NCBI GenBank assembly: GCA_002952755.1
Contig: CP025011.1
Span: forward strand, 1,110,001-1,142,000
Origin: Candidatus Saccharimonadota bacterium
GTDB lineage: Bacteria; Patescibacteriota; Saccharimonadia; Saccharimonadales; UBA4665
DNA length: 32,000 bases
Direction: 5' to 3'
Under the pieces are notes generated by a model. It had not been told where the DNA came from. It ran no database searches and saw nothing but the letters and a program-made list of their open reading frames with translations. Position numbers and translations under genes: made by a program. Below are positions 4,596 to 31,730 of the stretch, one piece after another; position 1 is the stretch's first letter; each line of letters starts with the position of its first letter.

Positions 4596-4703
4596 GAACG
4601 ACCATACCCTCTTCGAAAAATAGAGCGTTACACGCAGGCCGACCTCAGGTCGGTCTGGTTGCACTACGCCTGACTCTATTTTTCGAAGAGGGTATGGTCG
4701 TTC
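4596..4703 (-). repeat. Hairpin element copy 1 (conserved core in reverse orientation, 26-bp copy-specific perfect arms)
   Basis: Left arm gaacgaccataccctcttcgaaaaatagag is the exact reverse complement of the right arm. The core lies at 4622-4677. The copy sits between the convergent 3' ends of 2304..4553 and 4714..5652. Confidence 0.9.
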
Positions 4704-4713
4704 ACACCGCTAC

Positions 4714-5652
4714 TTATTGTTGCGAGACGAAATCGTAGACCTCTTTAGAGACATCAGCGATAAAACTATTCGCTTGGTCTTCCGGTAAGCCGACCATCAC
4801 ACACAACAAGTACGGGCGCTTGGGTATGTACACAATCCCACAATCGCTCTCCGACCACGCAGCATTAAATACACCAATTTTATGCGCAACGGTAAGCTTG
4901 GGCGGCAGATTCTGAGGGATGCGATTTGTTGCTGTCGATTTGGCCAGGTAGCTCAGCAGCTCTTGTGAATCACTTTTCTCCAGATAGGAAGAGAAATAGA
5001 GCCCTTTGAGCACCGAAGCGTACGAGCGGGCGTTGATCACCGCCTGGCCATTCTGCTCATTCTGGTCAATATCCAACCGAGCGAGCGACTGCTCGTCATA
5101 CGTCAACATGTCTTTGGTGTGATCGAATATAACATGCGTAGCAGTGTTATCGGACTGCTCAAGCGCATATTGCGCTGCCTGGCGAAGCGTCAATGTAAAA
5201 CCAGCGCCTTTTTTATAGAGGTCGCCATACGCATCGTCCAGCTCATCGGACGTTACGCTTACCGTTTGATCAAGATGAATCCGGCCCAATTCGGCAGCCT
5301 TATACAGATTCATGACAAGCGGCACCTTTATGAGCGAAGCAGCTACTAGTTCCTGGTCGGCCCCGATACGGATAGACGTACCATCCGGCAGATACTCAAA
5401 ATAAAAACTCTTCTGCACCGTAAGGGCGTCAAATTTGCTTTGGAGCTGTTTACGTAAAGGAACAAAATTGATCAAAATATCATTTTGAGGATCGCCTAAA
5501 ATATTAGCTGCCAGCAAAGGCAAATGCCGCCGGGAGGAGATTTGGGGAGGAGCGGGGCGGTCTTTGATAAACCAGCCAAGATTGCCCAGCAGAAGCAGCA
5601 CGCAAAGAGGTGCCAATATCTGCGCCCCCGTACGCTGTTTGATTTGTTTCAT
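4714..5652 (-). CDS. Class A beta-lactamase-fold serine hydrolase (penicillin-binding-like), membrane-anchored or secreted
   Basis: SxxK (ASLIK), SDN (EQSDNTA) and a KTG-like motif (HKIG). The ORF track starts at TTG 5691. I prefer ATG 5652 (MKQIKQRTG... followed by a hydrophobic anchor). Confidence 0.75.
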   Translation of the reverse strand: MKQIKQRTGAQILAPLCVLLLLGNLGWFIKDRPAPPQISSRRHLPLLAANILGDPQNDILINFVPLRKQLQSKFDALTVQKSFYFEYLPDGTSIRIGADQELVAASLIKVPLVMNLYKAAELGRIHLDQTVSVTSDELDDAYGDLYKKGAGFTLTLRQAAQYALEQSDNTATHVIFDHTKDMLTYDEQSLARLDIDQNEQNGQAVINARSYASVLKGLYFSSYLEKSDSQELLSYLAKSTATNRIPQNLPPKLTVAHKIGVFNAAWSESDCGIVYIPKRPYLLCVMVGLPEDQANSFIADVSKEVYDFVSQQ

Positions 5653-5693
5653 CCTATTGGTAGTGTAGGGGGTGTAGCAGAGTTCTGGCAAGC

Positions 5694-6341
5694 TCAGTTT
5701 GATAAATGTTCGTGCTGATGCCGCTTACAGGAATACATCATGTAGGCAGCAATGGCGCCGGTCGCTTCATAATGCACCGGGTTGCCCGGCGTCTCCTGAT
5801 AACGCGGGTCAAGCCCCAGCTCGGCCGAAGCGAGCGCCAAGTGAAAGCACACCAGCGATTCGGTAGGGGTGATCTCCGGGCAACGCTTCTTGAGCACAGC
5901 CCGAAAAGCATCGACGAAACGCTCCCAGCTAGCTTTGTTTTGAGCTAACAGCCGGGGATTAGCCTTCTCGGCATACAGGAAAGCAAACGGGCCGTTCAAA
6001 CGCGAATAATTCACCCAGGATTCTACCAGCAAGAGCAGCACCTCATCCCACGACAAGTGTGGCAAAAAGGGATGTTGACCAATCTCAGCAAAAATCTTCG
6101 AAAGGTCATCAACATACAATTCGGTGAGCGCAGCGATAATCGCATCTTTGTTTGGGTAGTACCGATACACCGAACCTATGGGCACTCTAGCGTGCGCCGC
6201 AATGTCATTCGTCGTCACTTCCTCAAGGCCACGCTCCCTAAATAGGGCTAACGCCGCGGCCAATATAACACGCACCCGCTCTTTACCTCGGGCTTGAGAC
6301 GGAGCCGTGCGCTTGGCTTTATACTTATCCGGATCGTACAT
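5694..6341 (-). CDS. TetR/AcrR family transcriptional regulator
   Basis: N-terminal TetR HTH: ILAAALALFRERGLEEVTTNDIAAHARVPIGSVYRYYPNKDAI. Confidence 0.9.
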   Translation of the reverse strand: MYDPDKYKAKRTAPSQARGKERVRVILAAALALFRERGLEEVTTNDIAAHARVPIGSVYRYYPNKDAIIAALTELYVDDLSKIFAEIGQHPFLPHLSWDEVLLLLVESWVNYSRLNGPFAFLYAEKANPRLLAQNKASWERFVDAFRAVLKKRCPEITPTESLVCFHLALASAELGLDPRYQETPGNPVHYEATGAIAAYMMYSCKRHQHEHLSN

Positions 6342-6440
6342 CGTTCGTACGTTTACTATATGAGAAGAGCAGAACTACTGCAATAAAATATATTACGGCT
6401 TAGACAACAATGTTTTGCTACGGTATGATTGGATTTACGC

Positions 6441-6911
6441 ATGAACCCTAAAATTTCCTCACTCGTCTTTCTTAACTACCTGACGACCGTGTTCGATAAC
6501 GTCGCCGATGCCATTATTTTGATTGGCGTGGAGGCCAAAGGAGCATACCGCTTGCTACTTGCCAATCATGCTTTTTATGCATCAACGGGTCATTCTGAAG
6601 ACATCATTGGGCGCGAAGTCACTGATATTGTAGCGCCAGGCACTTATCCCGGCCTCTTAAAACACTATCAAAAGGCAATCCGAACCAAACAGCCACACGA
6701 ATACACCACTTGGATTCAGGTTCCCCGCGGTCGGCGTGCTTACCGCATAAAATTAATTCCTATACTTAACACTGTGGGTGAAGTTGCACAATTAGCCGGC
6801 ATTACCCGAGACGTTACCGACCATCTCAATATGCAAGAAGAACTGCGCCAGTTACGCGCCCAACAATATCCCCTCAGAGCGAAAGGTACCGACCGAACGC
6901 AAGCCTTGTAG
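6441..6911 (+). CDS. Single PAS-domain protein
   Basis: PAS-like fold sequence (ADAIILIG...LLLANHAFYASTGHSEDIIGREVTDIV...AQLAGITRDVTD) followed by a coiled-coil-like tail. The track start 6429 is TTG, so ATG 6441 is preferred. Confidence 0.7.
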   Translation: MNPKISSLVFLNYLTTVFDNVADAIILIGVEAKGAYRLLLANHAFYASTGHSEDIIGREVTDIVAPGTYPGLLKHYQKAIRTKQPHEYTTWIQVPRGRRAYRIKLIPILNTVGEVAQLAGITRDVTDHLNMQEELRQLRAQQYPLRAKGTDRTQAL

Positions 6912-6960
6912 CTGCGGTGATCGTTGCGTGTGACCCTACTCCTGCTATCATTGGAGTACT

Positions 6961-7959
6961 ATGAATCGACGCGCAACCGCTGCACACGCCTGGAGAGTTA
7001 TGGACGGGGAGGCTTACTATCAAACATTGATACATGCTATTCCCCTCGCTCAAAAACGCATTACTATTGCTAGTATGCTCTTGCTTGCCGAGAAAAGGGT
7101 GGGTCACATACTAGCCTTGCTAGAACAAGCGATCGAACGCGGCGTATCCGTTACTTTATTATTCGATAATGGCGCTCTTCGGTCGCATTTTATCTACCAA
7201 ATCGATGAAGGCTCAACTCGTAAAACAGTATTGCGTGACACCTTTGCGACACTTGAGACGCTTGCTGCCAAAGGTGCTACAGTTTATCCCTTCAGCAAGT
7301 CACGTCTGCATCCGTACCGCGGCAGATGCCACGTCAAGATAACTATTCTCGACGATACTGTATATTCCTTTGGCGGTATAAATATGATGGATGGCGGCTT
7401 TAGAAGTACGGATTTCATGCTGTCTCAAGTATATCCAGCAGCAGCCAATATACTTACCGACCTGGTCGAACAAATTGGCACCCAGGGCCCGCCCTTACTT
7501 AATCGAGATCCATCGATTGCACAGGGGAGTATTTTGTTTGATGGCGGAGAGCCACATCATTCCATTATCTATGAGCGAGCCTGTGAACTCACCTTGCAGG
7601 CCAAGCACGTCACCTTTGTATCGCAAATGACGCCGAGCGGCAGGTTAGGGCAATTACTCAGCAAAACCGATGCAACGTGCTACTTTAACCGTCCGGAACA
7701 AATGACCGCCCCCCAATCATGGGGTCAGATATTCGACCAGCAACGTTACCGAATTACAAATAGCTATACGCGCGCCGAATACATACACGCCAAATGTATG
7801 CTCTTCGAGTTACCAAGCGGCCAGCACGTCGTGTTAACTGGCTCAAACAATTTCAGTTACCGCGGCGTAGCGTATGGCACACAAGAGATTGCACTCTGCA
7901 GTACCGATCCCCGCTTATACGAGAGCCTCGATGAGTTCATACGGAAAACAATTGGTTAA
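6961..7959 (+). CDS. Phospholipase D superfamily protein with two HKD-type motifs
   Basis: HVKITILD (HxKxxxxD) and HAKCMLFE..GSNN (second HKD-like motif). Confidence 0.8.
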   Translation: MNRRATAAHAWRVMDGEAYYQTLIHAIPLAQKRITIASMLLLAEKRVGHILALLEQAIERGVSVTLLFDNGALRSHFIYQIDEGSTRKTVLRDTFATLETLAAKGATVYPFSKSRLHPYRGRCHVKITILDDTVYSFGGINMMDGGFRSTDFMLSQVYPAAANILTDLVEQIGTQGPPLLNRDPSIAQGSILFDGGEPHHSIIYERACELTLQAKHVTFVSQMTPSGRLGQLLSKTDATCYFNRPEQMTAPQSWGQIFDQQRYRITNSYTRAEYIHAKCMLFELPSGQHVVLTGSNNFSYRGVAYGTQEIALCSTDPRLYESLDEFIRKTIG

Positions 7960-7966
7960 AACCATC

Positions 7967-8317
7967 CTATATGAGGGCGCCGCGGCGCACATACGCCATC
8001 AGGAGCAGATCCCCAGAGAATTGACGCCAACGACCGAGAAGCATGTTTCGTCGCTCGCGGCGCACTTTGGGGTTGCGCTCAAAACGGATCGCTCGGCCAA
8101 TCGCCCATTCGCCCATAGCCAGAGAAGCAAGCAAGCCCGCTCGGCTATGACGAGCCGTCTCCTGGATATCAACTCTTTCCTTACGGCGACGCTTACGAGC
8201 CCGTTCGGCGGCGAGTGCGCGCTCTAAGTTGTATTGTCTCAATGCGAGTTCGTTATACACAGGAGGCTGAGGAAATATGGCCTCTCCCGACGGCGTAACG
8301 ATCGGTTGTCGCTCCAT
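7967..8317 (-). CDS. Hypothetical protein, Arg-rich
   Basis: A strong Shine-Dalgarno sequence (AAAGGAGG) lies 5 nt upstream of the ATG on the minus strand. This ORF is preferred over the overlapping plus-strand ORF 7874..8227. Confidence 0.6.
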   Translation of the reverse strand: MERQPIVTPSGEAIFPQPPVYNELALRQYNLERALAAERARKRRRKERVDIQETARHSRAGLLASLAMGEWAIGRAIRFERNPKVRRERRNMLLGRWRQFSGDLLLMAYVRRGALI

Positions 8318-8336
8318 ATAAACCTCCTTTCAAAGA

Positions 8337-8510
8337 TTATTTTTTAGGTACTTTGCCTCCAGCCTCCCGGGCTTCTGAGAGTCCGATCGCAACAGCCTGC
8401 TTTGGGTTGGTCACCTTCTTACCTGAGCGTCCGCTCTTTAGAGTACCGTGCTTCATCTCGTGCATGGCTTTTTCAACTTTGGCTGATGCTTTTGGTCCGT
8501 ATTGATTCAT
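8337..8510 (-). CDS. Small conserved protein (57 aa), resembles the DUF6496 family of small basic proteins
   Basis: Not in the ORF track because it is under 60 aa. Translation: MNQYGPKASAKVEKAMHEMKHGTLKSGRSGKKVTNPKQAVAIGLSEAREAGGKVPKK*. GGAGG lies 7 nt upstream of the ATG. The family call is from memory of the ...MHE.K.GTLKSG.SGKKV..RKQAIAIGLSEAR... pattern. Confidence 0.7.
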   Translation of the reverse strand: MNQYGPKASAKVEKAMHEMKHGTLKSGRSGKKVTNPKQAVAIGLSEAREAGGKVPKK

Positions 8511-8527
8511 AGACCTGCCTCCGTTTA

Positions 8528-8549
8528 GATGTACAAAAAATAGTACATC
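8528..8549. promoter_or_regulatory. 7-bp inverted repeat (GATGTAC-N8-GTACATC) just upstream of the small-protein gene; candidate operator or promoter element
   Basis: The perfect inverted repeat is seen directly. On the minus strand it overlaps a TACTAT -10-like hexamer upstream of the SD of 8337..8510. Confidence 0.3.
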
Positions 8550-8600
8550 ATTTGGATGTGAGTGCGCAGTAAGCTATTTCACCGGGTGCCCAATAAGTAC

Positions 8601-8710
8601 TACTAGTCCGTATTCCTATGCCCAAGTAGAGTCAGGCGTAGTGCAACCAGACCAGCGCAAGCTGGTCTGCGTGAGAACGCTCTACTTGGGCATAGGAATA
8701 CGGACTAGTA
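8601..8710 (+). repeat. Hairpin element copy 2 (core forward, 27-bp perfect arms)
   Basis: Arms tactagtccgtattcctatgcccaagtagag / ctctacttgggcataggaatacggactagta. The core lies at 8628-8683. The apical stem CAGACCAGC-GCAA-GCTGGTCTG is perfect. The right arm overlaps the stop codon and last codon of the pilin-like gene. Confidence 0.9.
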
Positions 8711-9169
8711 AGTGCGCGTGATGCTAATCTTCACATGGCCTTCGGCATGCGGGGCTTCGACGGTAACCGTACGGCCAGAAGCCCGCAACCCATACCCAGA
8801 GAGGTACAGCCCTCCACTATCAGCACAGGTAGTAGCACTTAGATCCACGCCACCGACGGGATCTAAGGGCATCTCTTTTAGATAGGTTGGTATTAAGATT
8901 TTACACAAATCAAAATTGGTACTCGTTACCGAGCCGATTACTGCATTGGCCGTCGGCAAGCCAGCCGGCAAACTCCCATTGGCGGCCACGTACCGATTAA
9001 ACGCCTGCGCAATCGCCGCAATGTCAGCCCAGCGATTACCATTATTGCGCTCCACCTGATAGTTCTTAGGATGCAATAAAAATGCGGATAAAAATGCTAA
9101 TCCACAGATAAAAAAACTAACAACGAGTAGCTCCAATAGCGTAAATCCTCGCTGACTATGCCTATACAT
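8705..9169 (-). CDS. Type IV pilin-like (prepilin-type N-terminal cleavage/methylation domain) protein
   Basis: Class III signal: MYRHSQRG|FTLLELLVV plus a hydrophobic helix. The track ORF extends to 9307. The short basic leader argues for ATG 9169. Confidence 0.75.
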   Translation of the reverse strand: MYRHSQRGFTLLELLVVSFFICGLAFLSAFLLHPKNYQVERNNGNRWADIAAIAQAFNRYVAANGSLPAGLPTANAVIGSVTSTNFDLCKILIPTYLKEMPLDPVGGVDLSATTCADSGGLYLSGYGLRASGRTVTVEAPHAEGHVKISITRTY

Positions 9170-9215
9170 AGCTAAAGGGTAGCATATCTGTCGTAAGCCA
9201 GGGTAGAATAGGCTC

Positions 9216-9755
9216 ATGAGCACCCCAAATGCCAGTATCGAATATGAGCTTACTTTTTTAGCCAAACATGTACCAAACGAAATACACAATACGCTCCCTG
9301 AACGCATGGTAGATATCTACCTTCCCGAAAATGTAGAAATTCACCCTGTCCTGCGCCTCCGTAAGCGAGCAGGCAACTACGAAATTACTAAAAAAACAAT
9401 CCTAAACGGCACCGACTCATCCGAAATGCGGGAGCAAACAATCCCGCTGACCCAACTTGAATTTGAAGAGCTCGCCAGCGGGCATCACCGCCTGGTCGAA
9501 AAGGATCGCTATAAAGTAATGCTCGGAGGCCGCCCGGCCGAGGTGGACATTTTTAGCGGTAAGCTGGAAGGATTGGTACTTATCGACTTTGAATTTCTAA
9601 ATAGTGTCGACAAAGCAGCATTCCAGCCGCCGGATTGCTGTCTTGCCGAGGTGACACAAGAAGTTGCGGTAGCCGGCGGTCATTTGGCCGGTAAATCGTA
9701 TGATGATATCGACGAAATACTGCAGCGCTTTCAATATCGGCGCCTGTTCTTATAA
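9216..9755 (+). CDS. CYTH-domain (triphosphate tunnel metalloenzyme) protein
   Basis: An N-terminal IEYELTFL motif (ExExK-like) and the overall CYTH-like pattern. TAGAAT lies 6 nt upstream of the ATG. Confidence 0.65.
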   Translation: MSTPNASIEYELTFLAKHVPNEIHNTLPERMVDIYLPENVEIHPVLRLRKRAGNYEITKKTILNGTDSSEMREQTIPLTQLEFEELASGHHRLVEKDRYKVMLGGRPAEVDIFSGKLEGLVLIDFEFLNSVDKAAFQPPDCCLAEVTQEVAVAGGHLAGKSYDDIDEILQRFQYRRLFL

Positions 9756-9845
9756 AAGGGAGATTGGCAAATTGCTCGGACACTACTAGTCATTCAGCGA
9801 ACAATCAGTTAGGCTACATATAGTACGAGGTAACTAGAGAGAAAC

Positions 9846-10799
9846 GTGATGAAGTTAGTAGTGCAGATTTCCTGCCTCAATGAAGAGAACACGCTGCCAG
9901 CAGTCCTGAAAGGTATTCCTAAAAAGATTCCGGGTATCGACAAGATCGAAATATTAATTATCGATGACGGCTGCAGCGATAACACAGTACAGGTTGCTAG
10001 AAAACTAGGCGTGCATCACTTTGTATATCACCGCCAATGGAAAGGACTGGCCGCCGGCTTTAAAAATGGGCTGAATAAATCGTTAGAACTCGGCGCTGAT
10101 ATCATCGTTCACACCGATGGCGACAATCAATACCCGGGCGATCGTATCCCCGATCTAGTACAACCCATTCTAGACGGCAAAGCAGACATGGTTATTGCCG
10201 ACCGCCAAACGCAAAAAATCGAACATTTCTCGCCGGCAAAAAAAATCTTCCAGCGGGTGGGCACTCGCGTGCTCAATGCCGCGGCCGGGCTGCAGGTACC
10301 CGATGCACCCAGCGGCTTCCGGGCCTATAGCCGGGAAGCGGCCATGCAGCTGAATGTCATCACCCGGTTCAGCTACGCCATGGAAACACTCATTCAGGCT
10401 GGACAAAAACGGCTAGCCATCGTGAGCATACCCATCACCACCAATCCCAAAACACGCGAATCGCGCCTGTTTAAGTCATCTTGGGAGCATATGTATAAAT
10501 CGGGCATGGCCATCAGCCGTGCATTTGTAATGTACCGTCCGTATGTACTCTTTAATAGCCTCGGCTTACTTCTTTTGCTCCTCGGCATGATTCCCTTTAC
10601 GCGCTATCTGTACTTCTACTTCTTTGATCACTCGCATGGTCTGCATCACATTCAATCCCTCATAGCCGGGAGCGTACTACTTATCGGTTCCTTCATCGCT
10701 TTCACGCTCGGCGTCATTGCCGATTTGATCCGTATCAATCGAGTCCTTGTAGAAGAGGCGCTCGAGCATAGTCGCCACCGACGATTTGATAGCGACTAG
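9846..10799 (+). CDS. Family 2 glycosyltransferase, polyprenol-phosphate sugar synthase-like, with C-terminal TM helices
   Basis: ISCLNEENTLPAVL..., IIDDGCSDNT and DGDNQY motifs, plus C-terminal hydrophobic helices. Start is GTG 9846 or the adjacent ATG 9849. Confidence 0.85.
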   Translation: MMKLVVQISCLNEENTLPAVLKGIPKKIPGIDKIEILIIDDGCSDNTVQVARKLGVHHFVYHRQWKGLAAGFKNGLNKSLELGADIIVHTDGDNQYPGDRIPDLVQPILDGKADMVIADRQTQKIEHFSPAKKIFQRVGTRVLNAAAGLQVPDAPSGFRAYSREAAMQLNVITRFSYAMETLIQAGQKRLAIVSIPITTNPKTRESRLFKSSWEHMYKSGMAISRAFVMYRPYVLFNSLGLLLLLLGMIPFTRYLYFYFFDHSHGLHHIQSLIAGSVLLIGSFIAFTLGVIADLIRINRVLVEEALEHSRHRRFDSD

Positions 10800-10832
10800 C
10801 CCGCAAATATACTAAAGAGAAGACCTTATAAT

Positions 10833-12341
10833 CTAGAAATATTTATTACCCTCGAGCACCAAGGGCGACAACACGCTACGAACGCTGTTATTAAGTGTCA
10901 CAATCGGACGGCTCGGCCAATCCCAACTGCTATCGCTACGCGTAATAAAACCGATAACACCACCCCCTTGCAGGAAGCATGCTACAGCCAACCCTGCTAT
11001 CACTGGCTTAACGTTGGGCCAGAGACGAAGCGCCAGGTTCAGCCCCCGGCCAGCTACCACACCCAGCGGCAATAGTACCGGTAATAGGTAGCGCCCATTG
11101 ACTGCCACCGGCTGTCCTGTCTCCAGATACTGGGAAAAATTATCGGCCCATACGATGGTAATATACAGCACGCTCATTCCCGTAAGGAAGATCAACAAAG
11201 GGCGCTTGTTGAATACTTTACGGGCATACAACAAAGTAGCTATCAACGCGCACACCCCAAAACAAATGGCTGCGGCACTGGGCAACGGAGAAGGAGGGTA
11301 ATTCAGAAAACCACTAGCCGGGCCGTTGATCATAAAGAAAAGCCGGTAGTGCATACCCTGCAGCCAAAGCCAGCTATAGCTTAACGGATTGGCTGATACG
11401 CTTTCCTTGTTTTGGGTATAGATGTAATTACGGGCCCAGGGCCCATACGACTGACAGTCGCCAGGGGTAAGCACTGTATCACAGGCTGGGACAGGGGTGT
11501 GGTAGGCGGACAAATTCATACCATAGCGTTGCACGAACAGTATGCTGCTCACCAGAAGAAATACTATCAACCCGATTTTCGTAAGCATAGATAATGCACC
11601 ATAACCTTGCCGTAGCCGTGAGCGCAAAAGCCCCTGCCGCCAGAAATTGCGCGCAAAGATAACAACTAGGAAGCATGTGGCCGCTGCCGCCATCGGCAAA
11701 AAGGCATACTTGACGAGACTACCAAGCAGACAGAGGCATACAAAATAAGTAAACGCCTTCAGATCGATCTGTTGTTTTTGAAAACCGTCGTATAACTTAA
11801 AGGTGAGGAGGCAGAGACCGGCGACGACTGGCATAAGTAAATTATCATAGTTGATTTGTCCGGCTAGCAACGGCACAATAGGGATGAGTACAAATAGCGC
11901 CAGTAGGGCGTTCGCAAGGCCTCGCGAAGTGCCCGCCTTGCGCATCACTTTTACAAATAACCACAATCCCAGCGTGAAAAGAACGATATTAATACATCTT
12001 AGGGCGATAATCTGTACCGCCTGCTTGCCGGATAGTATCGAGATTATTCGATAAGGAAAGCTCATCAGCCAGTGATATAGGTACGACGGGTCACGATTAA
12101 GCGCGCCATACTTGCCGTTACCGATGCCGGCATCGGACAAAAAAGGGATCCAATGATGTGCGTATATTTTGATGATACCGAAATGAAAATCCTCATCGAA
12201 TGCCATCGGATACACGGCAGAACAGGCTACCCAGGCAGCCTCAAAAACAAAAAATCCCAATAGTATATGGGTACATCGACGTGATCTGAATACTTGATTT
12301 ATCTTCTCAATAATACGCTGCATGGAATACTTACCGCTCAT
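10833..12341 (-). CDS. Polytopic membrane protein, GT-C fold glycosyltransferase candidate (ArnT/PMT-like)
   Basis: About 12 hydrophobic segments. An acidic DED motif follows TM1 (AFDEDFHF). It is adjacent to the GT2 gene. An alternative start exists at ATG 12323. Confidence 0.7.
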   Translation of the reverse strand: MSGKYSMQRIIEKINQVFRSRRCTHILLGFFVFEAAWVACSAVYPMAFDEDFHFGIIKIYAHHWIPFLSDAGIGNGKYGALNRDPSYLYHWLMSFPYRIISILSGKQAVQIIALRCINIVLFTLGLWLFVKVMRKAGTSRGLANALLALFVLIPIVPLLAGQINYDNLLMPVVAGLCLLTFKLYDGFQKQQIDLKAFTYFVCLCLLGSLVKYAFLPMAAAATCFLVVIFARNFWRQGLLRSRLRQGYGALSMLTKIGLIVFLLVSSILFVQRYGMNLSAYHTPVPACDTVLTPGDCQSYGPWARNYIYTQNKESVSANPLSYSWLWLQGMHYRLFFMINGPASGFLNYPPSPLPSAAAICFGVCALIATLLYARKVFNKRPLLIFLTGMSVLYITIVWADNFSQYLETGQPVAVNGRYLLPVLLPLGVVAGRGLNLALRLWPNVKPVIAGLAVACFLQGGGVIGFITRSDSSWDWPSRPIVTLNNSVRSVLSPLVLEGNKYF

Positions 12342-12389
12342 TATACATCGCCCTCTGGATATCAGCTGGAATCTTCATCGCATAGGCAC

Positions 12390-12500
12390 TGCCAGAACAA
12401 ACAGAACTGCTCTCAGTAGAGTCAAGCGTAGTGCAGCCAGACCGACGTAAGTCGGCCTGCGCCTAACGCTCTACTGGGAGCAGTTCTGTTTGTTCTGGCA
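12390..12500 (+). repeat. Hairpin element copy 3 (core forward, 28-bp arms with one T:G position)
   Basis: Arms tgccagaacaaacagaactgctctcagtagag / ctctactgggagcagttctgtttgttctggca. The only non-Watson-Crick position is T12413:G12477. The core lies at 12418-12472. The copy lies between the divergent starts 12341(-) and 12540(+). Confidence 0.9.
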
Positions 12501-12539
12501 TTAGTCGCCTCTGACGAAATTTTATATACTGGTATCATC

Positions 12540-13436
12540 ATGAAAAAATATCTACGCAGCGTTGCTGCAGCGAGCATTGTTATTTGTACCATCGCAGCAT
12601 TTGTTCGCTACATTTCAGCACATCCTGCTCTCCGCCATCAGTTACAGAGGCTATCCGTAAGTACGCTAGCCCTGTTATTTGGTTTATACTGTCTCGTGTT
12701 CTTGCTACTGTCAGTTGTAAGTCGAGCCAGCTTGGATTTGTATGGAAAACGCATCACCCCTAAGGAAAATATGCTCTTTAATGCCTATTCATCGCTGGTT
12801 AATTTCTTCGGCCCAGGGCAGAGTGGTCCGGTCTTCCGGGGAGCATATCTTAGAAAACGGCACAACCTAGGATTGAAACAGTACGTCTTTGCCACGCTGT
12901 TGTATTACGGCTTTTTCGCAGTCTTCAGTACTTTTCTGATGCTGGCAGGCACTTGTCCCTGGTGGCAGACAGCAGGACTTATGTGTACTACCGGAGTCCT
13001 GAGTGGAGGAGTTATACGCTGGTATAAGCGGCGAGCTGGCCTGCAACAGATACGACCCACTGTCTCAGCCATTGCCTGGATCGGCATGGCTACTGCGTTG
13101 CAAGTTGCCCTTATGGTTGCCATTTACAGCGTCGAGCTACACAGCGTGGCAGTGAAGGCTTCTCTCGGGCAAGTAATGTCCTACACTGGCGTCGCCAATT
13201 TGGCACTTTTTGCAGCCCTAACACCGGGTGCTATCGGTATCCGCGAGGGTTTCTTGCTCTTCAGCCAGCGGCTGCATCATATCACCAGCAGCGCTATCGT
13301 AGCCGCTAACGTTGTCGACCGTGGCGTGTACTTGCTATTTCTCGGATTGCTCTTCATTTTGGTTATCAGTATGCATGCCAAACAGAAACTCCAGGTAACA
13401 CAAACTAACACTGACACACATTTAAAAAAGCCATAA
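12540..13436 (+). CDS. UPF0104 / lysyl-phosphatidylglycerol-synthase-TM-like flippase-type membrane protein
   Basis: Multi-pass membrane protein with GPGQSGPVFRGAYLRK and TPGAIGIREG motifs typical of this family. Confidence 0.7.
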   Translation: MKKYLRSVAAASIVICTIAAFVRYISAHPALRHQLQRLSVSTLALLFGLYCLVFLLLSVVSRASLDLYGKRITPKENMLFNAYSSLVNFFGPGQSGPVFRGAYLRKRHNLGLKQYVFATLLYYGFFAVFSTFLMLAGTCPWWQTAGLMCTTGVLSGGVIRWYKRRAGLQQIRPTVSAIAWIGMATALQVALMVAIYSVELHSVAVKASLGQVMSYTGVANLALFAALTPGAIGIREGFLLFSQRLHHITSSAIVAANVVDRGVYLLFLGLLFILVISMHAKQKLQVTQTNTDTHLKKP

Positions 13437-13447
13437 ATCGCCACACA

Positions 13448-13548
13448 GCACTCTCCCAATGTTCTCCAAAAGAGTCAGGCGTAGTGCAGCCAGACCGACG
13501 TAAGTCGGCCTGCGCGTAACGCTCTTTTGGAGAACATTGGGAGAGTGC
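13448..13548 (+). repeat. Hairpin element copy 4 (core forward, 23-bp perfect arms)
   Basis: Arms gcactctcccaatgttctccaaaagag / ctcttttggagaacattgggagagtgc. The core lies at 13471-13525 and differs from the copy 3 core at 2 positions. Confidence 0.9.
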
Positions 13549-13596
13549 CGGCTATCATACATACGCAAAAAGGCTAGACGCTGTTATGATACTTTT

Positions 13597-14772
13597 ATGA
13601 ACTGGCTCGACCTGTTTATTGCCCTTTTTCTGATCTCGGCATGTATACGAGGAGTTGAAATAGGGTTCGTACGCCAATTTTTCTCGACGACTGGCTTCTT
13701 TGGTGGGCTATTCCTAGGAGCCGCCATTGAAAGACTACTTGGGAAGAGCGTGCACTCTGCCGAAGGCAAAGCCTTATTGGCACTCTCTGTGGTCGTCGGC
13801 GTTGCGCTGGTTTGTATGGCAGTAGGGGAATACATAGGCTTGCGCATTAAATTTAAGCTACGCGAGACACGGCTTGCCGAGAAGATCGACAACGCCCTCG
13901 GCTCATTGCTCGCCGGCATAACACTGCTGGCTGGCGTCTGGCTAGGGGCAGCGATATTCCGCAATGTGCCCGATGGCACTTGGCAGCGGCAAATCCATCG
14001 TTCGCGCATTGTTGCCATACTCAATACCCAGCTGCCCTCGGCGCCAAATCTGCTGACTAATCTTGGTGGCTTAATCGACCCAAATGGCTTCCCCCAGGTG
14101 TTTACGGGGCTAGAGCCGGGACTGCCCAATGACACAACACTGCCAAATATGGGAACGCTGACCGCAGCTGTACAGCAAGACCGTGCGTCAGTTGTCAAAA
14201 TTGAAGGACAGGGCTGCGGCGGAGTGATCGAAGGTTCTGGCTTTGTCGCCGCAGACAATGAGGTCGTCACCAACGCTCATGTGGTGGCTGGCGTCAAACA
14301 GTCCTATGTGCTCGACCAAAACGGTCAACACAAAGGGAGGGTCACCCTCTTTGACCCTGAACTTGACATTGCCATTCTGCGCGTAGATGGCCTGAAGGGC
14401 GCTCCACTTCACCTAAGCGCTAACGCTATCGACAATGGGACTGCCGCGGCTATTGCCGGGTACCCGGGAGGCGGTGGATTTAGTGCCGGGCCGGCGGTAA
14501 CACTCGATTCATTTACTGCGATGGGGCGTGATATCTACAATAAAAGACAAACGACCCGCCAAATATACTCACTCAGAGGAGATGTGCAGCAGGGCAATTC
14601 TGGTGGCCCACTGATCATGCAAGACGGATCAGTGATGGGCGTTATTTTTGCCAAATCAACGGTCTATAGTAGCGTAGGTTACGCGCTTACCATCAACCAG
14701 GTCATTAACGAACTTCACCAAGCTGCAAACCAGACAGGCACGACAAGTACCGGGAGCTGTGCAGCCTCATAA
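13597..14772 (+). CDS. CvpA-family membrane domain fused to a trypsin-like serine protease (MarP-like architecture)
   Basis: N-terminal CvpA-like TM region. Catalytic triad contexts TNAHVV, DIAILRV and GNSGGPL. The track start 13537 is a TTG inside the repeat arm, so in-frame ATG 13597 (MNWLDLF...) is preferred. Confidence 0.85.
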   Translation: MNWLDLFIALFLISACIRGVEIGFVRQFFSTTGFFGGLFLGAAIERLLGKSVHSAEGKALLALSVVVGVALVCMAVGEYIGLRIKFKLRETRLAEKIDNALGSLLAGITLLAGVWLGAAIFRNVPDGTWQRQIHRSRIVAILNTQLPSAPNLLTNLGGLIDPNGFPQVFTGLEPGLPNDTTLPNMGTLTAAVQQDRASVVKIEGQGCGGVIEGSGFVAADNEVVTNAHVVAGVKQSYVLDQNGQHKGRVTLFDPELDIAILRVDGLKGAPLHLSANAIDNGTAAAIAGYPGGGGFSAGPAVTLDSFTAMGRDIYNKRQTTRQIYSLRGDVQQGNSGGPLIMQDGSVMGVIFAKSTVYSSVGYALTINQVINELHQAANQTGTTSTGSCAAS

Positions 14773-23666: not shown

Positions 23667-23668
23667 TC

Positions 23669-25510: not shown

Positions 25511-25519
25511 CTTAGCATT

Positions 25520-25571
25520 CATCGCCGTCCTATTCGGTCCTGCAGATGCAGGCACGAATACGACGGCGATG
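25520..25571. other. Long imperfect hairpin abutting or overlapping the tRNA-Leu 3' end
   Basis: catcgccgtcctattcg ... cgaatacgacggcgatg forms 17-bp arms with 1 mismatch, around an inner palindrome cctgca-ga-tgcagg. It is unrelated in sequence to the six-copy element. Confidence 0.6.
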
Positions 25572-25656
25572 GTGGGCGAGGAGGGAATCGAACCCTCACG
25601 AACTTGCGTTCACAGGATTTTGAGTCCAGCGCGTCTACCAATTCCGCCACCCGCCC
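25570..25656 (-). tRNA. tRNA-Leu (anticodon CAA), long variable arm, CCA encoded
   Basis: Reverse complement GGGCGGG-TG-GCG-GAATTGGTAGA-CGC-G-CTGGA-CTCAAAA-TCCTG-...-GAGGG-TTCGATT-CCCTC-CTCGCCC-A-CCA. It aligns with the E. coli tRNA-Leu(CAA) layout as I remember it. There is one U:U mismatch in the anticodon stem. Confidence 0.8.
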
Positions 25657-25704
25657 GGGACTTTTTTAGCGAGTAGTAATCCAAGGATTATCAACTCTGA
25701 TTTA

Positions 25705-25729: not shown

Positions 25730-25785
25730 CTTCACAGGGAGATTGTACTATAATTAAGAAGATAAGGCGAGCATTAGCAACGATT

Positions 25786-27108: not shown

Positions 27109-27117
27109 TCAGACACA

Positions 27118-27228
27118 CCAATACCGCCTCCGCCTCTGTTTTAGTAGAGTCAAGCGTAGTGCAGCCAGACCAGCGTAAGCTGGCCTGCGGGAAACGCTCT
27201 ACTAAAACAGAGGCGGAGGCGGTATTGG
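27118..27228 (+). repeat. Hairpin element copy 5 (core forward, 28-bp perfect arms)
   Basis: Arms ccaataccgcctccgcctctgttttagtagag / ctctactaaaacagaggcggaggcggtattgg. The core lies at 27146-27200. The copy starts 9 nt after the sortase stop and ends 2 nt before the PEGA gene stop. Confidence 0.9.
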
Positions 27229-27230
27229 AA

Positions 27231-28694: not shown

Positions 28695-28905
28695 AACGAA
28701 TCATTCTATTATATGCCACGATGCCCCTCTTTAGGCAAGAGGTTTCGCAAGCGATCTATACCGTTCATGGGGTGGATCATTCTGCGCAGGCTAGATAAAA
28801 CTTTCATGAGACCATTACCCCTTCGGACACTTGCGCTTCACAGCATGAGCAATGTACGATATAAACAACTTACGCTTTAAGCGCTTGTAGAGGGTAATAA
28901 AAACG

Positions 28906-30066
28906 GTGAGCGAGAATACGATAGAACTAAACGGGAAGCGCTACGATGCGGTCACGGGTGCCTATTTGGGTAAAAGCAGCGCCGAAGTAGTACTGCCAGC
29001 GCTAGGCCTCTCCAAAAAAAGGAGCCAGACTATCGATGGCTTTATCCGCCCAGCACACCGTGACGTGCATCCCACAACCATAGCGAAACCCACACACAAA
29101 ACCGCTACAACGCATGCCCAGGATCACCCCAAGGCAAAACCTCGCAGCGTTTCTGGTATAGTTCGTGCCCCAGGGGCCACACATCGCAAGGCACACCAAC
29201 CAGAACATGCCACAACATTGATGCGCACTACGGTACACAAGCCAAAGGCGACACCCAAGCCCGCTATCAAAGCACAAAAACCGGCCGAAGTAAAAATAGC
29301 CGCCCGGCCAACTGCTGTGCTGGCACACAAGCAATCGGTCTCTAAGGTGGATCCGTCTCGTTTAGAGCGCTCGCAGCATGTGGCCAGGCACCAAGCAGTA
29401 CGGCGTTTTTATGCAACACAGCCCGCGGCTCTAGGCGTAGGCAACAGCACAAAAACGCAGCATATTCCCTTACCAATTATTCCGGTGAAAAATGCGCCGC
29501 CGCACCATGCCAGCACATCGCATCGCGAGATCCACCCCAAGCCCGCCGATATATTCGAATCAGCTATTACGCACGCCACCAGTCACAAACAGCCTAAGCA
29601 GCGTTATCGCAAACATCATAGCCGCCTCGTGAACACCATGGCTGCAGTGTCTGCTTTTGTGATACTTGGCGGTTTTATTACTTACCTCAATATGCCCAAT
29701 ATTGAACTGCATATTGCCTCAGCCCAAGCCGGCTTTCATGCCTCACTTCCGGGCTTCAGGCCCACAGGCTACGCTAGGAGCGGCCATATCGTGCATGCTG
29801 GTGGCACAATTAGCATGCGCTTTACCTCTGGAGACAGCAATTACACGATCACTCAGCAGGCTTCTGATTGGAACAGCCAGGCACTGCTCGACAATACGCT
29901 CGCTTTGAGCGGCGCCCACCAAACAGTCCAAAAAAACGGTGAAACAATCTACATCTACAATAAGGGCGCCAGCGCTGCATGGGTAAATAACGGCATACGC
30001 TATGACATGAGCGGCAACGCCAGCCTCAGCAGCAGCGACATCACGTCCATCGCCACCAGCTTATAG
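28906..30066 (+). CDS. Hypothetical single-pass membrane protein (long basic N-terminal region, TM, C-terminal extracellular domain possibly DUF4367-like)
   Basis: GTG start. TM segment AAVSAFVILGGFITYL. The N-terminal half is Lys/His/Pro-rich. The C-terminal domain assignment is tentative. Confidence 0.65.
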   Translation: MSENTIELNGKRYDAVTGAYLGKSSAEVVLPALGLSKKRSQTIDGFIRPAHRDVHPTTIAKPTHKTATTHAQDHPKAKPRSVSGIVRAPGATHRKAHQPEHATTLMRTTVHKPKATPKPAIKAQKPAEVKIAARPTAVLAHKQSVSKVDPSRLERSQHVARHQAVRRFYATQPAALGVGNSTKTQHIPLPIIPVKNAPPHHASTSHREIHPKPADIFESAITHATSHKQPKQRYRKHHSRLVNTMAAVSAFVILGGFITYLNMPNIELHIASAQAGFHASLPGFRPTGYARSGHIVHAGGTISMRFTSGDSNYTITQQASDWNSQALLDNTLALSGAHQTVQKNGETIYIYNKGASAAWVNNGIRYDMSGNASLSSSDITSIATSL

Positions 30067-30120
30067 CGAGTAACCTCTAGCGATCGTGTCACCTCAGTTC
30101 CCCTAGAGGGCATTTTCGGC

Positions 30121-30126
30121 TATAAT
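30121..30126 (+). promoter_or_regulatory. TATAAT -10 hexamer 7 nt upstream of the gltX ATG (implies a leaderless or near-leaderless mRNA)
   Basis: An exact TATAAT followed by caccctc and then ATG at 30134. There is no SD in between. Confidence 0.4.
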
Positions 30127-30133
30127 CACCCTC

Positions 30134-31561
30134 ATGAAACCAGCCCGCACCCGATTTGCTCCCAGCCCTACTGGCTACCTCCACGTTGGCGGTGTCCGAA
30201 CGGCTTTATTTGCCTGGCTTTTAGCAAAACAAAGCAAAGGGCAGTTTATCTTACGGCTGGAGGATACTGATAAAGCACGCGAAGTGCAAGGTTCCGAGCG
30301 GCACATTATAGATAGCCTGCATTGGCTCGGCTTGCAGTGGGACGAAGGGGTGGATATTGGTGGTCCCTATGCGCCCTACAAACAAAGTGAACGCTTATCA
30401 ATATACAAGGAGTGGGGTGAAAAATTAGTGGCCAAAGGAAGGGCATATGCCGACCCCTACACTCAAGCAGAAGTCGAAACCTTTAGGCAACAGGCTAAAG
30501 ATAGCAAACAACCGTTCTTGTTCCGCAACCACCGTCCAGAAAACCCACCAATATGGGACGGCACCCAGCCTTTACGCTTCAAGTCCGACCCAAAAGCCTA
30601 TACCTGGCATGACGCCGTCATGGGAGAATTATCTGCAGGAGAAGAGGCGATCGACGATTTTATCCTCATAAAATCAGATGGTTACCCCACTTATAACTTT
30701 TGCCACATTATTGATGATCTACTCATGAACTGCACCCATGTCATTCGTTCGCAGGAGTTCGTATCGAGTATACCGCGTTTTCTTAATCTCTACGAAGCAC
30801 TTGAAATAGAGCGACCCATATTAGCCACTCTGCCTGTAGTACTGGGGCCCGACGGCAAGAAAAAATTATCCAAACGCGACGGAGCTAAAGATATCTTGGA
30901 CTACGCACGTGAAGGCTATCTGCCAGAAGCGATGATGAATTTTATGGCCACTTTGGGCTGGAATGATGGAACTGAGCAAGAAATCTTTAGCGCCCAAGAG
31001 CTGATTGATACATTCCAGCTTGATCGCGTACAGCGGGGCGGTGCTAAGTTTGACGAGCAGCGCCTACTATGGATGAATGGCATGCATATGAGGGCCTTAT
31101 CGATCGATGATGTGGCCACTCGCGCCCAGACCTTTTGGCCACCAGAAGCCGCCAGTTACACCGACGACTACAAAAAACGTATCCTCAGGCTCGTTCAGGA
31201 GCGGCTAAAGTATTTTGCCGAACTACCTGCGCTCACCAGCTTCTTCTTCCAGGATTTACCAATTAATCCGAGTTTATGGACCGAGAACAAACAACTTAAA
31301 AAACTGAACGCCGGTGAATTAAAAAACCTACTTAATCTAGCCCGTAACACGCTTGCCGAATGCGACTTTTCGGTTACTTGTCTCACTAACCACTTGAACG
31401 ATTTATTGGAAAAAACACAGCAAAAGCCAGCGGTTTTGTTCAGCCTCGTCCGTATTGCCACCACCCAGGCGCCAGCTAGCCCAGCGCTAGCGGAAACGCT
31501 TGCCGTTCTTGGCAGAGAAGTTGTCCTGCGTCGTATCGACGCCATGCTACCTACATTGTAG
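30134..31561 (+). CDS. gltX: Glutamyl-tRNA synthetase
   Basis: RFAPSPTGYLHVGGVRTALF (HIGH-type) and KLSKRD (KMSKS-type). The length is typical of bacterial GluRS. Confidence 0.92.
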   Translation: MKPARTRFAPSPTGYLHVGGVRTALFAWLLAKQSKGQFILRLEDTDKAREVQGSERHIIDSLHWLGLQWDEGVDIGGPYAPYKQSERLSIYKEWGEKLVAKGRAYADPYTQAEVETFRQQAKDSKQPFLFRNHRPENPPIWDGTQPLRFKSDPKAYTWHDAVMGELSAGEEAIDDFILIKSDGYPTYNFCHIIDDLLMNCTHVIRSQEFVSSIPRFLNLYEALEIERPILATLPVVLGPDGKKKLSKRDGAKDILDYAREGYLPEAMMNFMATLGWNDGTEQEIFSAQELIDTFQLDRVQRGGAKFDEQRLLWMNGMHMRALSIDDVATRAQTFWPPEAASYTDDYKKRILRLVQERLKYFAELPALTSFFFQDLPINPSLWTENKQLKKLNAGELKNLLNLARNTLAECDFSVTCLTNHLNDLLEKTQQKPAVLFSLVRIATTQAPASPALAETLAVLGREVVLRRIDAMLPTL

Positions 31562-31621
31562 CCAATTGCCTCCTATCTTTCGCCATTGCCGTCATGCTGG
31601 CCCTGCATCCAGAGCTAGTTC

Positions 31622-31730
31622 TATCCTGATGGCAACCCCTCTTCAAGTAGAGCGTTTCGCGCAGGCCAGCTTACGCTGGTCTGGCTGCACTACGCTTGAC
31701 TCTACTTGAAGAGGGGTTGCCATCAGGATA
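31622..31730 (-). repeat. Hairpin element copy 6 (core reverse, 27-bp perfect arms)
   Basis: Arms tatcctgatggcaacccctcttcaagtagag / ctctacttgaagaggggttgccatcaggata. The core lies at 31649-31703 and, reverse-complemented, differs from the copy 5 core at 1 position. Confidence 0.9.

Follow-up and report, generated by a model that had tools for sequence, protein, structure and literature searches.

REP and REPIN sequences, mobilised by RAYT (TnpA-REP) transposases of the HUH Y1 type, are short, abundant and mostly extragenic hairpin repeats; they are lineage-specific and vertically persistent, carry a GTAG-like tetranucleotide at the foot of the conserved part, and are presumed to be recognised as folded single strands. 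Integron attC sites are likewise hairpins recognised by structure; their sequence varies between sites, and extrahelical bases and mismatches determine which strand is used. Insertion sequences of the IS110/IS1111 family typically insert into repeated palindromes, such as REP or attC hairpins. Fold-back (snap-back) duplication or quasi-palindrome template switching, as in the Tetrahymena rDNA palindromes and bacterial quasipalindrome mutagenesis, gives perfect inverted flank duplications around a short asymmetric centre with a small inverted repeat; such events are known as sporadic rearrangements and not as the propagation of a repeat family, and their arm length is not confined to about 25-30 bp. 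Rickettsia palindromic elements (RPEs) are palindromes of a reduced genome that can be inserted in frame into essential genes. Bacterial MITEs such as Correia, ERIC and Nezha are non-coding, multi-copy elements of about 100-200 bp that form long hairpins near genes. MITEs can be RNase III substrates, and the Correia hairpins of Neisseria are cleaved by this enzyme (PMC10969869).

The hairpins analysed here lie in a 32,000-nt stretch of DNA (the window) from a small uncultured Saccharimonadales (CPR) bacterium. They share traits with each of these repeats, and the claim of the initial annotation that their layout is the opposite of REP/REPIN, MITE, Correia and attC elements holds for 14 members from at least four organisms. 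REP and REPIN sequences conserve the paired arms, as an imperfect palindrome of 20-40 nt, and leave the centre free, whereas here an asymmetric centre is conserved and the arms are unique to each site. Terminal inverted repeats shared by the whole family and direct duplications of the target site mark MITEs; tests for both were negative here, only 7 nt beside the core being conserved while the outer arms are at the identity level of shuffled sequence. RPEs are conserved over their full length and are frequently inserted in frame, whereas these hairpins are mostly intergenic, conserve only the centre without a full-length consensus, and lie in frame in a gene in one member of 14. attC sites have R and L boxes conserved at their ends and a variable centre, and are found in cassette arrays close to an integrase; here the ends are unique, the copies dispersed, and no integrase was found in the window. 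Nor do the hairpins correspond to ordinary intrinsic terminators, in which a GC-rich hairpin runs straight into a U-tract. A scan of positions 4000-14000 called none of the four copies there as a whole and listed only a 5-bp stem inside the right arm of c3; a T-run follows the core in some copies only, located inside the stem, and canonical intrinsic terminators are not enriched in the region.

Core and fold of the window copies

Six exact matches to a 26-nt core pattern were found in the window and none in 100 dinucleotide-preserving shuffles, which reproduces the six copies first annotated, with their positions and strands (Table 1). A seventh, partial copy lies about 4.9 kb to the left of the window, at the start of L007; with this copy counted, the density is seven in about 37 kb, the previously estimated one per 5 kb. 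The copies are dispersed, 1-14 kb apart, and no other long perfect hairpin occurs in the window, where one imperfect palindrome was seen at 25520-25571. Convergent genes, 2304-4553(+) and 4714-5691(-), flank c1, and c5 occupies the 122-nt gap separating convergent sortase and PEGA genes. The right arm of c2 does overlap ORF 8705-9307(-) by its last 6 nt, stop codon included.

Table 1. Hairpin copies in the window and the parts of copy c5
Feature	Position	Strand	Description
c1	4596..4703	-	29-bp perfect arms; core variant A..TGT; apical stem GACC/GGTC with a 3-nt loop
c2	8601..8710	+	30-bp perfect arms
c3	12390..12500	+	31-bp arms with one T.G; divergently transcribed genes either side
c4	13448..13548	+	26-bp perfect arms; tandem + genes either side
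c5	27118..27228	+	31-bp perfect arms
c5 outer 5' arm	27118..27141	+	24 nt, C-rich, site-specific; partner 27205-27228
c5 closing stem	27142..27148	+	TAGTAGA, semi-conserved; partner TCTACTA 27198-27204
c5 core	27149..27197	+	Conserved, asymmetric (alignments A4 and A6, pair counts)
c6	31622..31730	-	30-bp perfect arms; 60 nt downstream of gltX

In each element, of about 105 bp, an asymmetric core of 49-50 nt is closed by a semi-conserved 7-bp stem (AAGTAGA/TCTACTT), beyond which another 17-24 base pairs follow. Read as inverted repeats, the six window copies have arms of 27-32 nt, 97-100% complementary, around a centre of 47-48 nt, and either strand folds with an energy of -69 to -80 kcal/mol (z-scores of -11 to -14). 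In the alignment of these copies (A1), which agrees with the core consensus originally given for them, 98% of the cells pair and both sides change at 27 of the 31 outer-stem pairs, values reached by none of 500 shuffles. The most similar cores belong to neighbours, with two differences between c3 and c4 and one between c5 and c6, the same counts as before.

From 5' to 3', the core of c5 contains a 5-nt bulge (GTCAA), a helix (GCGT/ACGC), an internal loop with AGTGCA on the 5' side and (G)GAA as its 3' counterpart, a covarying R-Y pair, a bulged C, and a 9-bp apical helix with an A.C mismatch and the loop GTAA. Covariation was observed in the apical helix and in the R-Y pair (AU 6, GC 5, GU 1). 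The A.C mismatch, which reads G.U on the complementary strand, is retained in 12 of the 14 copies; c2 is the only window copy in which A-T replaces it. Over the 14 members the invariant blocks are GCGTAGTGCA.CC.G and CTGCG.G..AACGC. The apical RRC-loop-GYY pattern annotated for the six window copies is true of these, but neither the RRC/GYY pairs nor the GNRA-type loop is conserved in members from other organisms. The description of a conserved centre with variable flanks extends to all 14, except that the inner 7 nt of each flank (A-R-T-A-G-A) are conserved too. GTAG adjoins the core in most copies and is replaced by ATAG, AAAG or GGAG in others, with mirrored changes; where the closing stem changes, in c1, c4, L094, L095 and L098, the partner arm changes to match.

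Arms and their boundaries

The cores of c5 and c6 are 98% identical and their outer arms 44%; for c3 and c4 the values are 96% and 52%. Outer arms of the 12 intact copies have a mean identity of 47%, against 45±6% for shuffled arms. Near-identical cores (96-98%) thus go with arms whose similarity is that of shuffled sequence, so core and arms are not inherited together. Neither the window nor 1.3 Mb of related loci contains a second copy of any arm. The arms pair almost without fault, and over the next 25 nt pairing drops to 26%, the chance level, which defines a sharp outer edge; stem length keeps to a narrow range of 24-31 bp. The arms hold three imperfections in all, each U.G on the reader's strand, and are otherwise almost devoid of G.U pairs. 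In 13 of 13 copies the 5' arm has more C than G (64:22 in the window, compared with 145:120 in ordinary 3' flanks), and the arms are thus no random sample of local DNA; this counts against the mobile-element explanation favoured below unless a target preference or selection is added to it. Some arm pairs within one metagenome organism are weakly similar (L093/L095, 64%, p<0.001), which also tells against that explanation. The octamer CAGACACA occurs twice in the window, both times abutting the outer end of a 5' arm (c5 and c6), and is consistent with a short motif marking the arm start.

That the hairpins are ordinary MITE, REP or REPIN elements, whose ends look variable only because few copies were seen, is very improbable and largely refuted by these data. 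They do resemble such families in their small size, multiple copies, hairpin fold and mostly intergenic location among genes, and GTAG stands beside the core as in REP, but this tetranucleotide varies, and neither the window nor the other loci examined showed a RAYT or matching IS. The initial annotation had reserved the outcome that its elements would become ordinary MITEs once more copies were aligned. They did not: no terminus is conserved over 14 members, and direct repeats of at least 3 nt, hence target-site duplications, are missing from the junctions of 12 copies. Least probable of all is that captured arms, from foreign DNA or rival elements, are joined to a constant handle as guides or memory. 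A constant handle with unique duplexes confined to 24-31 bp would suit such a role, and so would the match of the c5 arm to a core block of another hairpin family, B (15 of 18 nt; 46 of 20,000 shuffles), and of the c6 arm to another B segment (10 of 11 nt; 319 of 20,000 shuffles), although both similarities were spotted post hoc. Three arm 20-mers had no match in IMG/VR, nor did the arms in the related DNA; no effector genes associated with the hairpins were seen, the copies form no array, and the weak kinship of some arms within one genome also speaks against capture.

Members and site turnover in other genomes

No match was obtained in 185,579 reference genomes or among plasmids or phages, and no description of the family was found in the literature searched. 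The Rfam comparison proposed with the initial annotation returned only the two window tRNAs at gathering score, with no covariance model, self-cleaving ribozymes included, matching the hairpin, and at E<=10 around c3/c4 gave only sub-threshold look-alikes of miRNA or sRNA, none of them meaningful. The metagenome scan, also proposed there, added eight members in soil-type JGI contigs from at least three other organisms (38-98 bits with model R1; 45-87 bits with the core-only model R2). One of these, L090, is degraded and lies in frame within topA of another organism, which recalls the RPEs and shows that an intergenic position, as annotated for the window copies, does not extend to every member. 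The topA loop that holds it is uninterrupted in P0123, P0125 and P0128, and three hot spots of Saccharibacteria topA carry other palindromic inserts. The arms of L090 and L091 have decayed, so dead copies exist.

Orthologous gaps are filled, empty or differently filled among relatives, the closest available genomes being 78% identical in GluRS to the window host and 87% in NusA to the metagenome organism. A syntenic relative (L101-L103) has one family-B hairpin in the sortase/PEGA gap and one in the gap that follows gltX, both of the same build as the window family (A) and with another core. In L099 these two gaps are short and contain no hairpin, and at least seven further relatives have nothing in the gltX gap; in L011, L010 and L013 that gap holds families B, C or D at differing insertion points. 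These observations bear on the possibility, doubtful in our estimate, that the hairpins are residents inherited vertically at fixed sites, with arms that drift and are kept paired by arm-to-arm correction, and with centres repeatedly overwritten by gene conversion from other copies so as to be alike within a genome and different between genomes. Filling of the same two gaps by families A and B fits such residents, as do the similar cores of neighbouring copies and the alignment by cmsearch of B-core blocks with the A core. So do L076 and L077, with 98-99% identical flanks and identical 25-bp arms around loops that differ at three positions, two of them a compensatory pair. L090 and P0121 share what seems to be a common outer-arm sequence at the same topA site around different centres; these arms and the likeness of the c5 arm to the B core fit core replacement in a resident hairpin at least as well as the explanation that we prefer. 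However, the distance between stop codon and insertion point in the gltX gap differs between genomes (3 to 75 nt), the gaps are empty in many relatives, and the decayed copies indicate that arm pairing is not automatically maintained. A/B homology is unproven because R2 does not detect family B, and the origin of the scaffold and its sharp edges are left unexplained.

Possible mechanism and meaning

We tentatively favour the view that the hairpins are a family, not described before, of small mobile palindromes in Saccharimonadales that are non-autonomous, and that the core is copied while the arms are made or acquired at each site. What is propagated would be the asymmetric core plus the 7-bp closing stem, together about 63-65 nt; the 17-24 bp farther out in each arm would be site-specific, made or taken up anew with every insertion. 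An enzyme acting in trans, encoded elsewhere, may recognise the folded single-stranded core through its bulge, internal loop and conserved mismatch, and the core would insert into gene-free spacers and at times into permissive protein loops. The self-complementary core could then prime fold-back (snap-back) synthesis, with about 20-25 nt of the neighbouring DNA as template. Such copying would yield an inverted instead of a direct duplication, and so a perfect hairpin with a sharp outer edge, which might persist because transcripts are unharmed by it or gain slightly from it. The data establish the family with its structure and covariation, the unique perfect arms with their sharp edge and no target-site duplication, the varied filling of orthologous sites, the in-frame insertion and the decayed copies, whereas we infer that an enzyme acts in trans, that the intermediate is single-stranded and that flanking DNA is copied by fold-back.

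As a point against this explanation, no mobilising enzyme and no Y1/HUH domain was identified in about 37 kb of the host's 1.45-Mb genome, and no parent IS with the same ends and a transposase was found in the window or the loci read. The earlier statement that the window has no transposase needs one qualification. ORF 7874-8227(+), about 370 nt from c2 and overlapping an opposite-strand ORF, gives a borderline match to Pfam Transposase_20 of the IS110 family (E 1.6e-4; 22.4 bits, cut-off 21.3); it is the sole candidate, and probably either a remnant or a spurious hit. Neither an intact gene nor IS ends accompany it, and the hairpins would be at most targets of IS110/IS1111-type elements.

The hairpins may also be a cis-acting structured RNA module within neighbouring mRNAs, which is unlikely as the main explanation though compatible with mobility. 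The duplex would be an RNase III substrate or a hairpin protecting 3' ends, or an RNA polymerase pause or insulator between packed genes, and the core a protein-binding site or a small RNA released from processing stems. The covariation of the apical helix and R-Y pair, the retained mismatch with its G.U on the complementary strand and the U.G imperfections all suit an RNA. On either strand the 5' arm is rich in C and poor in G, which fits an RNA that stays unfolded until its partner is made, or Rho loading. The lack of enrichment of canonical terminators in the region, the long leader/trailer stem in which the tRNA-Leu of relatives likewise sits, and the cleavage of Correia hairpins by RNase III (PMC10969869) point the same way. 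Yet orientation is independent of transcription, c4 and c6 being opposite in the same tandem gene context; copies also lie between divergent genes and within a coding region, and most convergent gene pairs in the window have no element. The strand signals conflict, A.C on one strand against G.U on the other, arms nearly without G.U are unusual for selected RNA helices, and presence/absence and family replacement at orthologous sites resemble mobile DNA.

For the mobile-element explanation, it is conceivable, though we consider it doubtful, that a core of about 65 nt is inserted and its 17-24-bp site-specific arms are manufactured by a mechanism new for mobile elements. If so, the arms would arise by fold-back inverted target duplication or by another templated or untemplated C-biased process, and one mechanism would serve a superfamily of lineage-specific cores across Saccharimonadales, reusing a few intergenic gaps. 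A near-invariant centre between differing perfect arms inverts the layout of known bacterial repeat families and suggests that DNA is copied here in a manner not yet described.

A constant core between site-specific arms

The window comes from the chromosome of a bacterium of the order Saccharimonadales (Saccharibacteria, CPR), to which the best named relatives of its GluRS also belong, the nearest of them only 78% identical. All six hairpin copies reported in the initial annotation (family A; c1 to c6 along the window) were recovered at the expected positions and strands with a 26-nt core pattern, which had no match in 100 dinucleotide-preserving shuffles. An independent repeat finder returned six pairs of inverted arms of 27–32 nt, 97–100% complementary and 47–48 nt apart, and one long hairpin folds from either strand (−69 to −80 kcal/mol, z-scores −11 to −14). 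In the six-copy alignment, pairing holds in 98% of cells, 27 of 31 outer-stem pairs are changed on both sides between copies, and the observed pairing was approached by 0 of 500 shuffles and by no slid register. A Logan contig that reaches about 4.9 kb left of the window begins with a partial seventh copy, giving a density of 7 copies per ~37 kb. Logan short-read contigs of the same organism (L001–L007) break off precisely where arm and core of the elements meet, and therefore the repeats fragment assemblies of this genome. A separate hairpin scan of the 32 kb found no further long perfect hairpin, except for an imperfect palindrome (25 bp, 88% complementary, 2-nt loop) without the conserved core. 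It adjoins the 3′ end of a tRNA-Leu(CAA) gene, and could act as terminator of the tRNA gene or represent a hairpin scaffold that is decayed or empty.

The outer arms are site-specific, 17–24 bp long and, over 12 copies, perfectly paired apart from three G.T pairs in ~330 bp. They are joined to the core by a semi-conserved closing stem of 7 bp (AAGTAGA/TCTACTT), in which a variant on one side is matched on the other (ATAG in c1 and the metagenomic member L098, AAAG in c4, GGAG in the metagenomic members L094 and L095), so that the stem totals 24–31 bp. The core is an asymmetric module of 49–50 nt. Outermost is a bulge of 5 nt (GTCNN), followed by a helix of 4 bp (GCGT/ACGC) and an internal loop in which AGTGCA faces G-W-A. 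Further in come an R-Y pair that covaries (A-T in 6, G-C in 5, G-T in 1 and other combinations in 2), a C-G pair, a bulged C, and an apical helix of 9 bp that shows double compensatory changes and is capped by a tri- or tetraloop of free sequence. An A.C mismatch in the apical helix is retained in 12 of 14 copies, with A-T and G-C found once each. Directly beyond the arms complementarity is 26%, the chance level, which makes a sharp edge, and no direct repeats were found flanking the element.

Core variants had been said to cluster by neighbourhood, and this was borne out: core identity is 98% for c5/c6 and 96% for c3/c4, the free positions differing at only one or two sites. Identity of the outer arms is 44% and 52% in the same pairs, compared with 45 ± 6% for shuffled arms. 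Since the free core positions differ so little, the arms are not explained by neutral divergence from a common hairpin. Judging from these alignments, the arms must have been made, acquired or replaced per site, and not inherited with the core. Neither the window nor 1.3 Mb of related DNA contained a second copy of the arms, and three arm 20-mers had no match in IMG/VR. The arm sequences are not random: C exceeds G in the 5′ arm of 13 out of 13 copies (window total 64:22, p = 6.5e-6; ordinary 3′ flanks 145:120), and, with the families pooled, 8 of 19 elements have an arm tip that starts with GC. The octamer CAGACACA occurs just twice in the window, at 0 and 4 nt beyond the 5′ arm, in element orientation, of c5 and c6, which have near-identical cores; c4 has CCACACA in this place. 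A hairpin common to two Paceibacterota loci (L076 and L077), with identical 25-bp arms and flanks 98–99% identical, has a 28-nt loop that ends in CAGACACA; between the two loci this loop shows three differences, of which two compensate each other as a pair (A-T to G-C).

Distribution and genomic setting

Scans for the exact core in 185,579 reference genomes, JGI metagenomes and IMG/VR were negative, BLAST of the element against plasmids and phages gave no matches, and Rfam returned no family at the gathering score or at E ≤ 10, as the initial annotation had left to be checked. Literature searches by topic, core sequence and peptide translations of related palindromes yielded no description of the family or its layout. 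Relatives were retrieved solely by a gapped pattern retaining the two invariant blocks. This brought eight further members from JGI metagenomes, scoring 38–98 bits with a full-length covariance model and 45–87 bits with a core-only model: five in the soil-type sample Ga0193726, one in Ga0207647, and two degraded members, L091 and L090. They have the same invariant blocks (GCGTAGTGCA.CC.G and CTGCG.G..AACGC), with small differences in the bulge and closing stem and free variation in the apical stem-loop, and their arms too are unique and perfect, of 24–30 bp. At the covarying pair both genomes show the same alternatives, A/G and T/C. In L062, from a more distant relative, gltX is closely followed by a 13-mer, GTCATGCGTAGTG, that exactly reproduces the bulge and the beginning of the helix in the family A member L092, and then by a GC-rich hairpin. 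The core-only model gives this stretch only 15 bits (E about 2), and it may be a remnant or a distant relative.

Copies lie in both orientations between convergent, tandem and divergent genes. A copy usually takes up most of a short spacer, an arm tip covers the neighbouring stop codon in two cases, and the majority of the convergent gene pairs in the window lack the element. A simple terminator scan of 4000–14000 found no excess of intrinsic terminators, and of the four copies in this stretch it called none in its entirety. The description of the family as intergenic stands for the window copies, all essentially in spacers, and fails in another saccharibacterium, where the topA gene of L090 carries a degraded member in frame (residues 578–607 of 929) at a surface insertion site. 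This site is uninterrupted in the homologues P0123, P0125 and P0128 and holds other palindromic inserts in P0121, P0122 and P0139. The L090 and P0121 inserts apparently share outer-arm sequence and have different centres, which is suggestive, although unproven. More broadly, topoisomerase I of Saccharibacteria shows three hot spots of in-frame insertion, with palindromic elements that differ by genome (L090; P0121, P0122, P0126, P0139) and recurring peptides (HPELVSGS/ILKQVQDD, EPRNDGRE); in P0121 a NUDIX domain sits at one of them.

The statement that the window has no transposase has to be softened by a borderline Pfam match to Transposase_20 (IS110/IS116/IS902; E 1.6e-4, 22.4 bits, cut-off 21.3). 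The ORF concerned (117 aa), about 370 nt from c2 and overlapping another on the opposite strand, is perhaps what remains of a transposase, or else a chance match. Upstream of it and c2 is a PLD-family nuclease-like gene (PLDc_2 plus an NgoFVII restriction-endonuclease N-terminal domain). Elsewhere, an ORF of 749 aa without a Pfam match contains a 216-nt direct repeat (71% identity).

Related hairpins and turnover of sites

Other Saccharimonadales also have long, perfect hairpins, built in this way around different centres: families B (L011, L101–L103), C (L010), D (L013) and E (L080). The centres are asymmetric and conserved, and where a genome has two copies (L010, L101) the centre is common to both; the arms are completely different in L010 and different in their outer part only in L101. 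The L010 centre includes a complete bidirectional terminator-like hairpin. Several of these hairpins occupy the gaps that hold c5 (between sortase and PEGA genes) and c6 (downstream of gltX) in the window. Gene order sortase-PEGA-x-gltX in L101–L103 is that of the window and both gaps hold family B; in L099 both are short and empty. The gltX gap is empty in at least seven other relatives and in three more holds B, C or D at varying distance from the stop codon. In L017 a small gene takes the place of the hairpin in the sortase/PEGA gap. With gaps filled, empty or differently filled, the elements therefore come and go, reusing a few spacers of a compact genome. In the search for a close filled and empty pair, the nearest homologues were 78% (GluRS) and 87% (NusA) identical, and all-against-all BLAST of flanks among the loci gave no informative pair.

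Between the c5 arm (AAACAGAGGCGGAGGCGG) and the conserved 5′ block of the family-B core (AAACCGAAGCGGAGCCGG), 15 of 18 nt agree, a match also attained by 46 of 20,000 shuffles, and B occupies the orthologous gap in L101. Likewise, the c6 arm matches another B segment at 10 of 11 nt (319 of 20,000 shuffles). Such likenesses between short sequences are suggestive, not proof, and no family-B remnants were found in the flanks of c5 and c6. The full-length model aligns A and B chiefly through the long stems, and the core-only model does not detect B, so that an A-B superfamily is conjecture. In many Saccharimonadales tRNA-Leu(CAA) lies inside a 22–24-bp leader/trailer inverted repeat that extends the acceptor stem, and this embedding of a structured RNA in a long stem resembles the build of family A.

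Coordinates of features in the window and in compared loci
Feature	Locus	Positions
Family A copy c5	window	27118-27228 (+)
Family A copy c6	window	31622-31730 (-)
c5 arm resembling family B	window	27199-27222
Octamers near c5, c6	window	27110-27117; 31735-31742
Imperfect palindrome	window	25520-25571
tRNA-Leu(CAA)	window	25570-25656 (-)
ORF without Pfam match	window	2304-4553
Direct repeat in that ORF	window	3369-3584; 3624-3839
PLD-like gene	window	6961-7959
Transposase_20-like ORF	window	7874-8227 (+)
ORF on opposite strand	window	7967-8317
Family B hairpins	L011	10726-10848
	L101	2906-3019; 7432-7542
Family B 5′ core block	L101	2932-2953
Family C hairpins	L010	1143-1274; 11501-11627
Family D hairpin	L013	2311-2411
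Family E hairpin	L080	3022-3150
topA with insert	L090	2984-5773
13-mer and hairpin	L062	5413-5472
Paceibacterota hairpin	L076/L077	6012-6089
tRNA-Leu(CAA) in long stem	L027	5600-5721
	L034	2932-3048
	L040	5899-6016
	L043	5161-5275
	L045	6023-6138
	L048	4266-4382
	L063	5985-6101
	L065	5763-5881
	L078	4002-4117

Nature and significance of family A

The layout, a conserved centre with unique perfect arms, is the opposite of that of families with conserved ends, as the initial annotation held. Its proposed refutation, that the copies are ordinary MITEs, was pursued, and neither the conserved terminal repeats nor the direct target duplications of MITEs were found. Family A likewise lacks the conserved arms of REP/REPIN, the conserved end boxes and arrays of integron attC sites, with no integrase in the window, and the U-tract of intrinsic terminators. 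It works like small palindromic repeats, yet is outside every described family. Several other candidates were rejected: hairpin, hammerhead or other ribozymes (no model match, different loop layout), a bidirectional intrinsic terminator (no U-tract outside the stem), an invertible promoter switch (arms not conserved, no recombinase in the window), a DNA uptake sequence (element too long and too structured), a retron or DGR accessory hairpin (no reverse transcriptase in the window, copies dispersed), and RAG/hAT-type P-nucleotide palindromes (palindrome centre 30 nt from the flank motif, not on it).

Family A is most likely a non-autonomous palindromic mobile element, given the high core identity, the lineage-restricted families, the presence, absence and family replacement at orthologous sites, the in-frame insertion and the decayed copies. 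The propagated unit would be the core with its closing stem. Enzymes that act on folded single strands (attC, REP/RAYT) choose the strand by asymmetric bulges, loops and mismatches, and the bulge, loop and conserved mismatch of family A could be features of this type. The chief alternative sees the hairpins as resident scaffolds in which gene conversion overwrites the centres. This would explain the occupancy of one site by different families, the likeness of neighbouring cores, and the L090/P0121 and L076/L077 pairs. A structured-RNA role, as an RNase III site, a pause or insulator hairpin or a processed small RNA, is compatible with either model and is favoured by the covariation and the arm composition; alone, it leaves the turnover of sites unexplained.

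For a mobile element, the arms would be formed in a separate, special step, in which the centre, via its own short inverted repeats, would prime fold-back copying of ~20–25 nt of adjacent DNA. The asymmetric centre with its short inverted repeats, the perfect arms, the sharp edge and the lack of direct duplication make this the most likely origin of the arms, held with modest confidence, and there is a fair chance that their origin is mechanistically new.

CPR bacteria have tiny, tightly packed genomes, thought to be poor in repetitive DNA. At one copy per ~5 kb, family A would occupy about 2% of the 1.45-Mb genome, and analogous families exist in sister lineages. Assemblies from short reads are broken at these elements, which matters for MAG building, and their possible insertion into essential genes such as topA matters for gene calling. 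We know of no transposition chemistry that fits a constant centre, site-specific perfect arms and no direct target duplication; the layout therefore points to a new mechanism of insertion or copying, or alternatively to an unrecognised class of structured RNA or DNA modules with a dedicated partner protein. Taken together, family A is real and new, and its architecture is unusual. It is one of a wider, as yet undescribed group of elements in Saccharimonadales, within which homology of the families is a conjecture.
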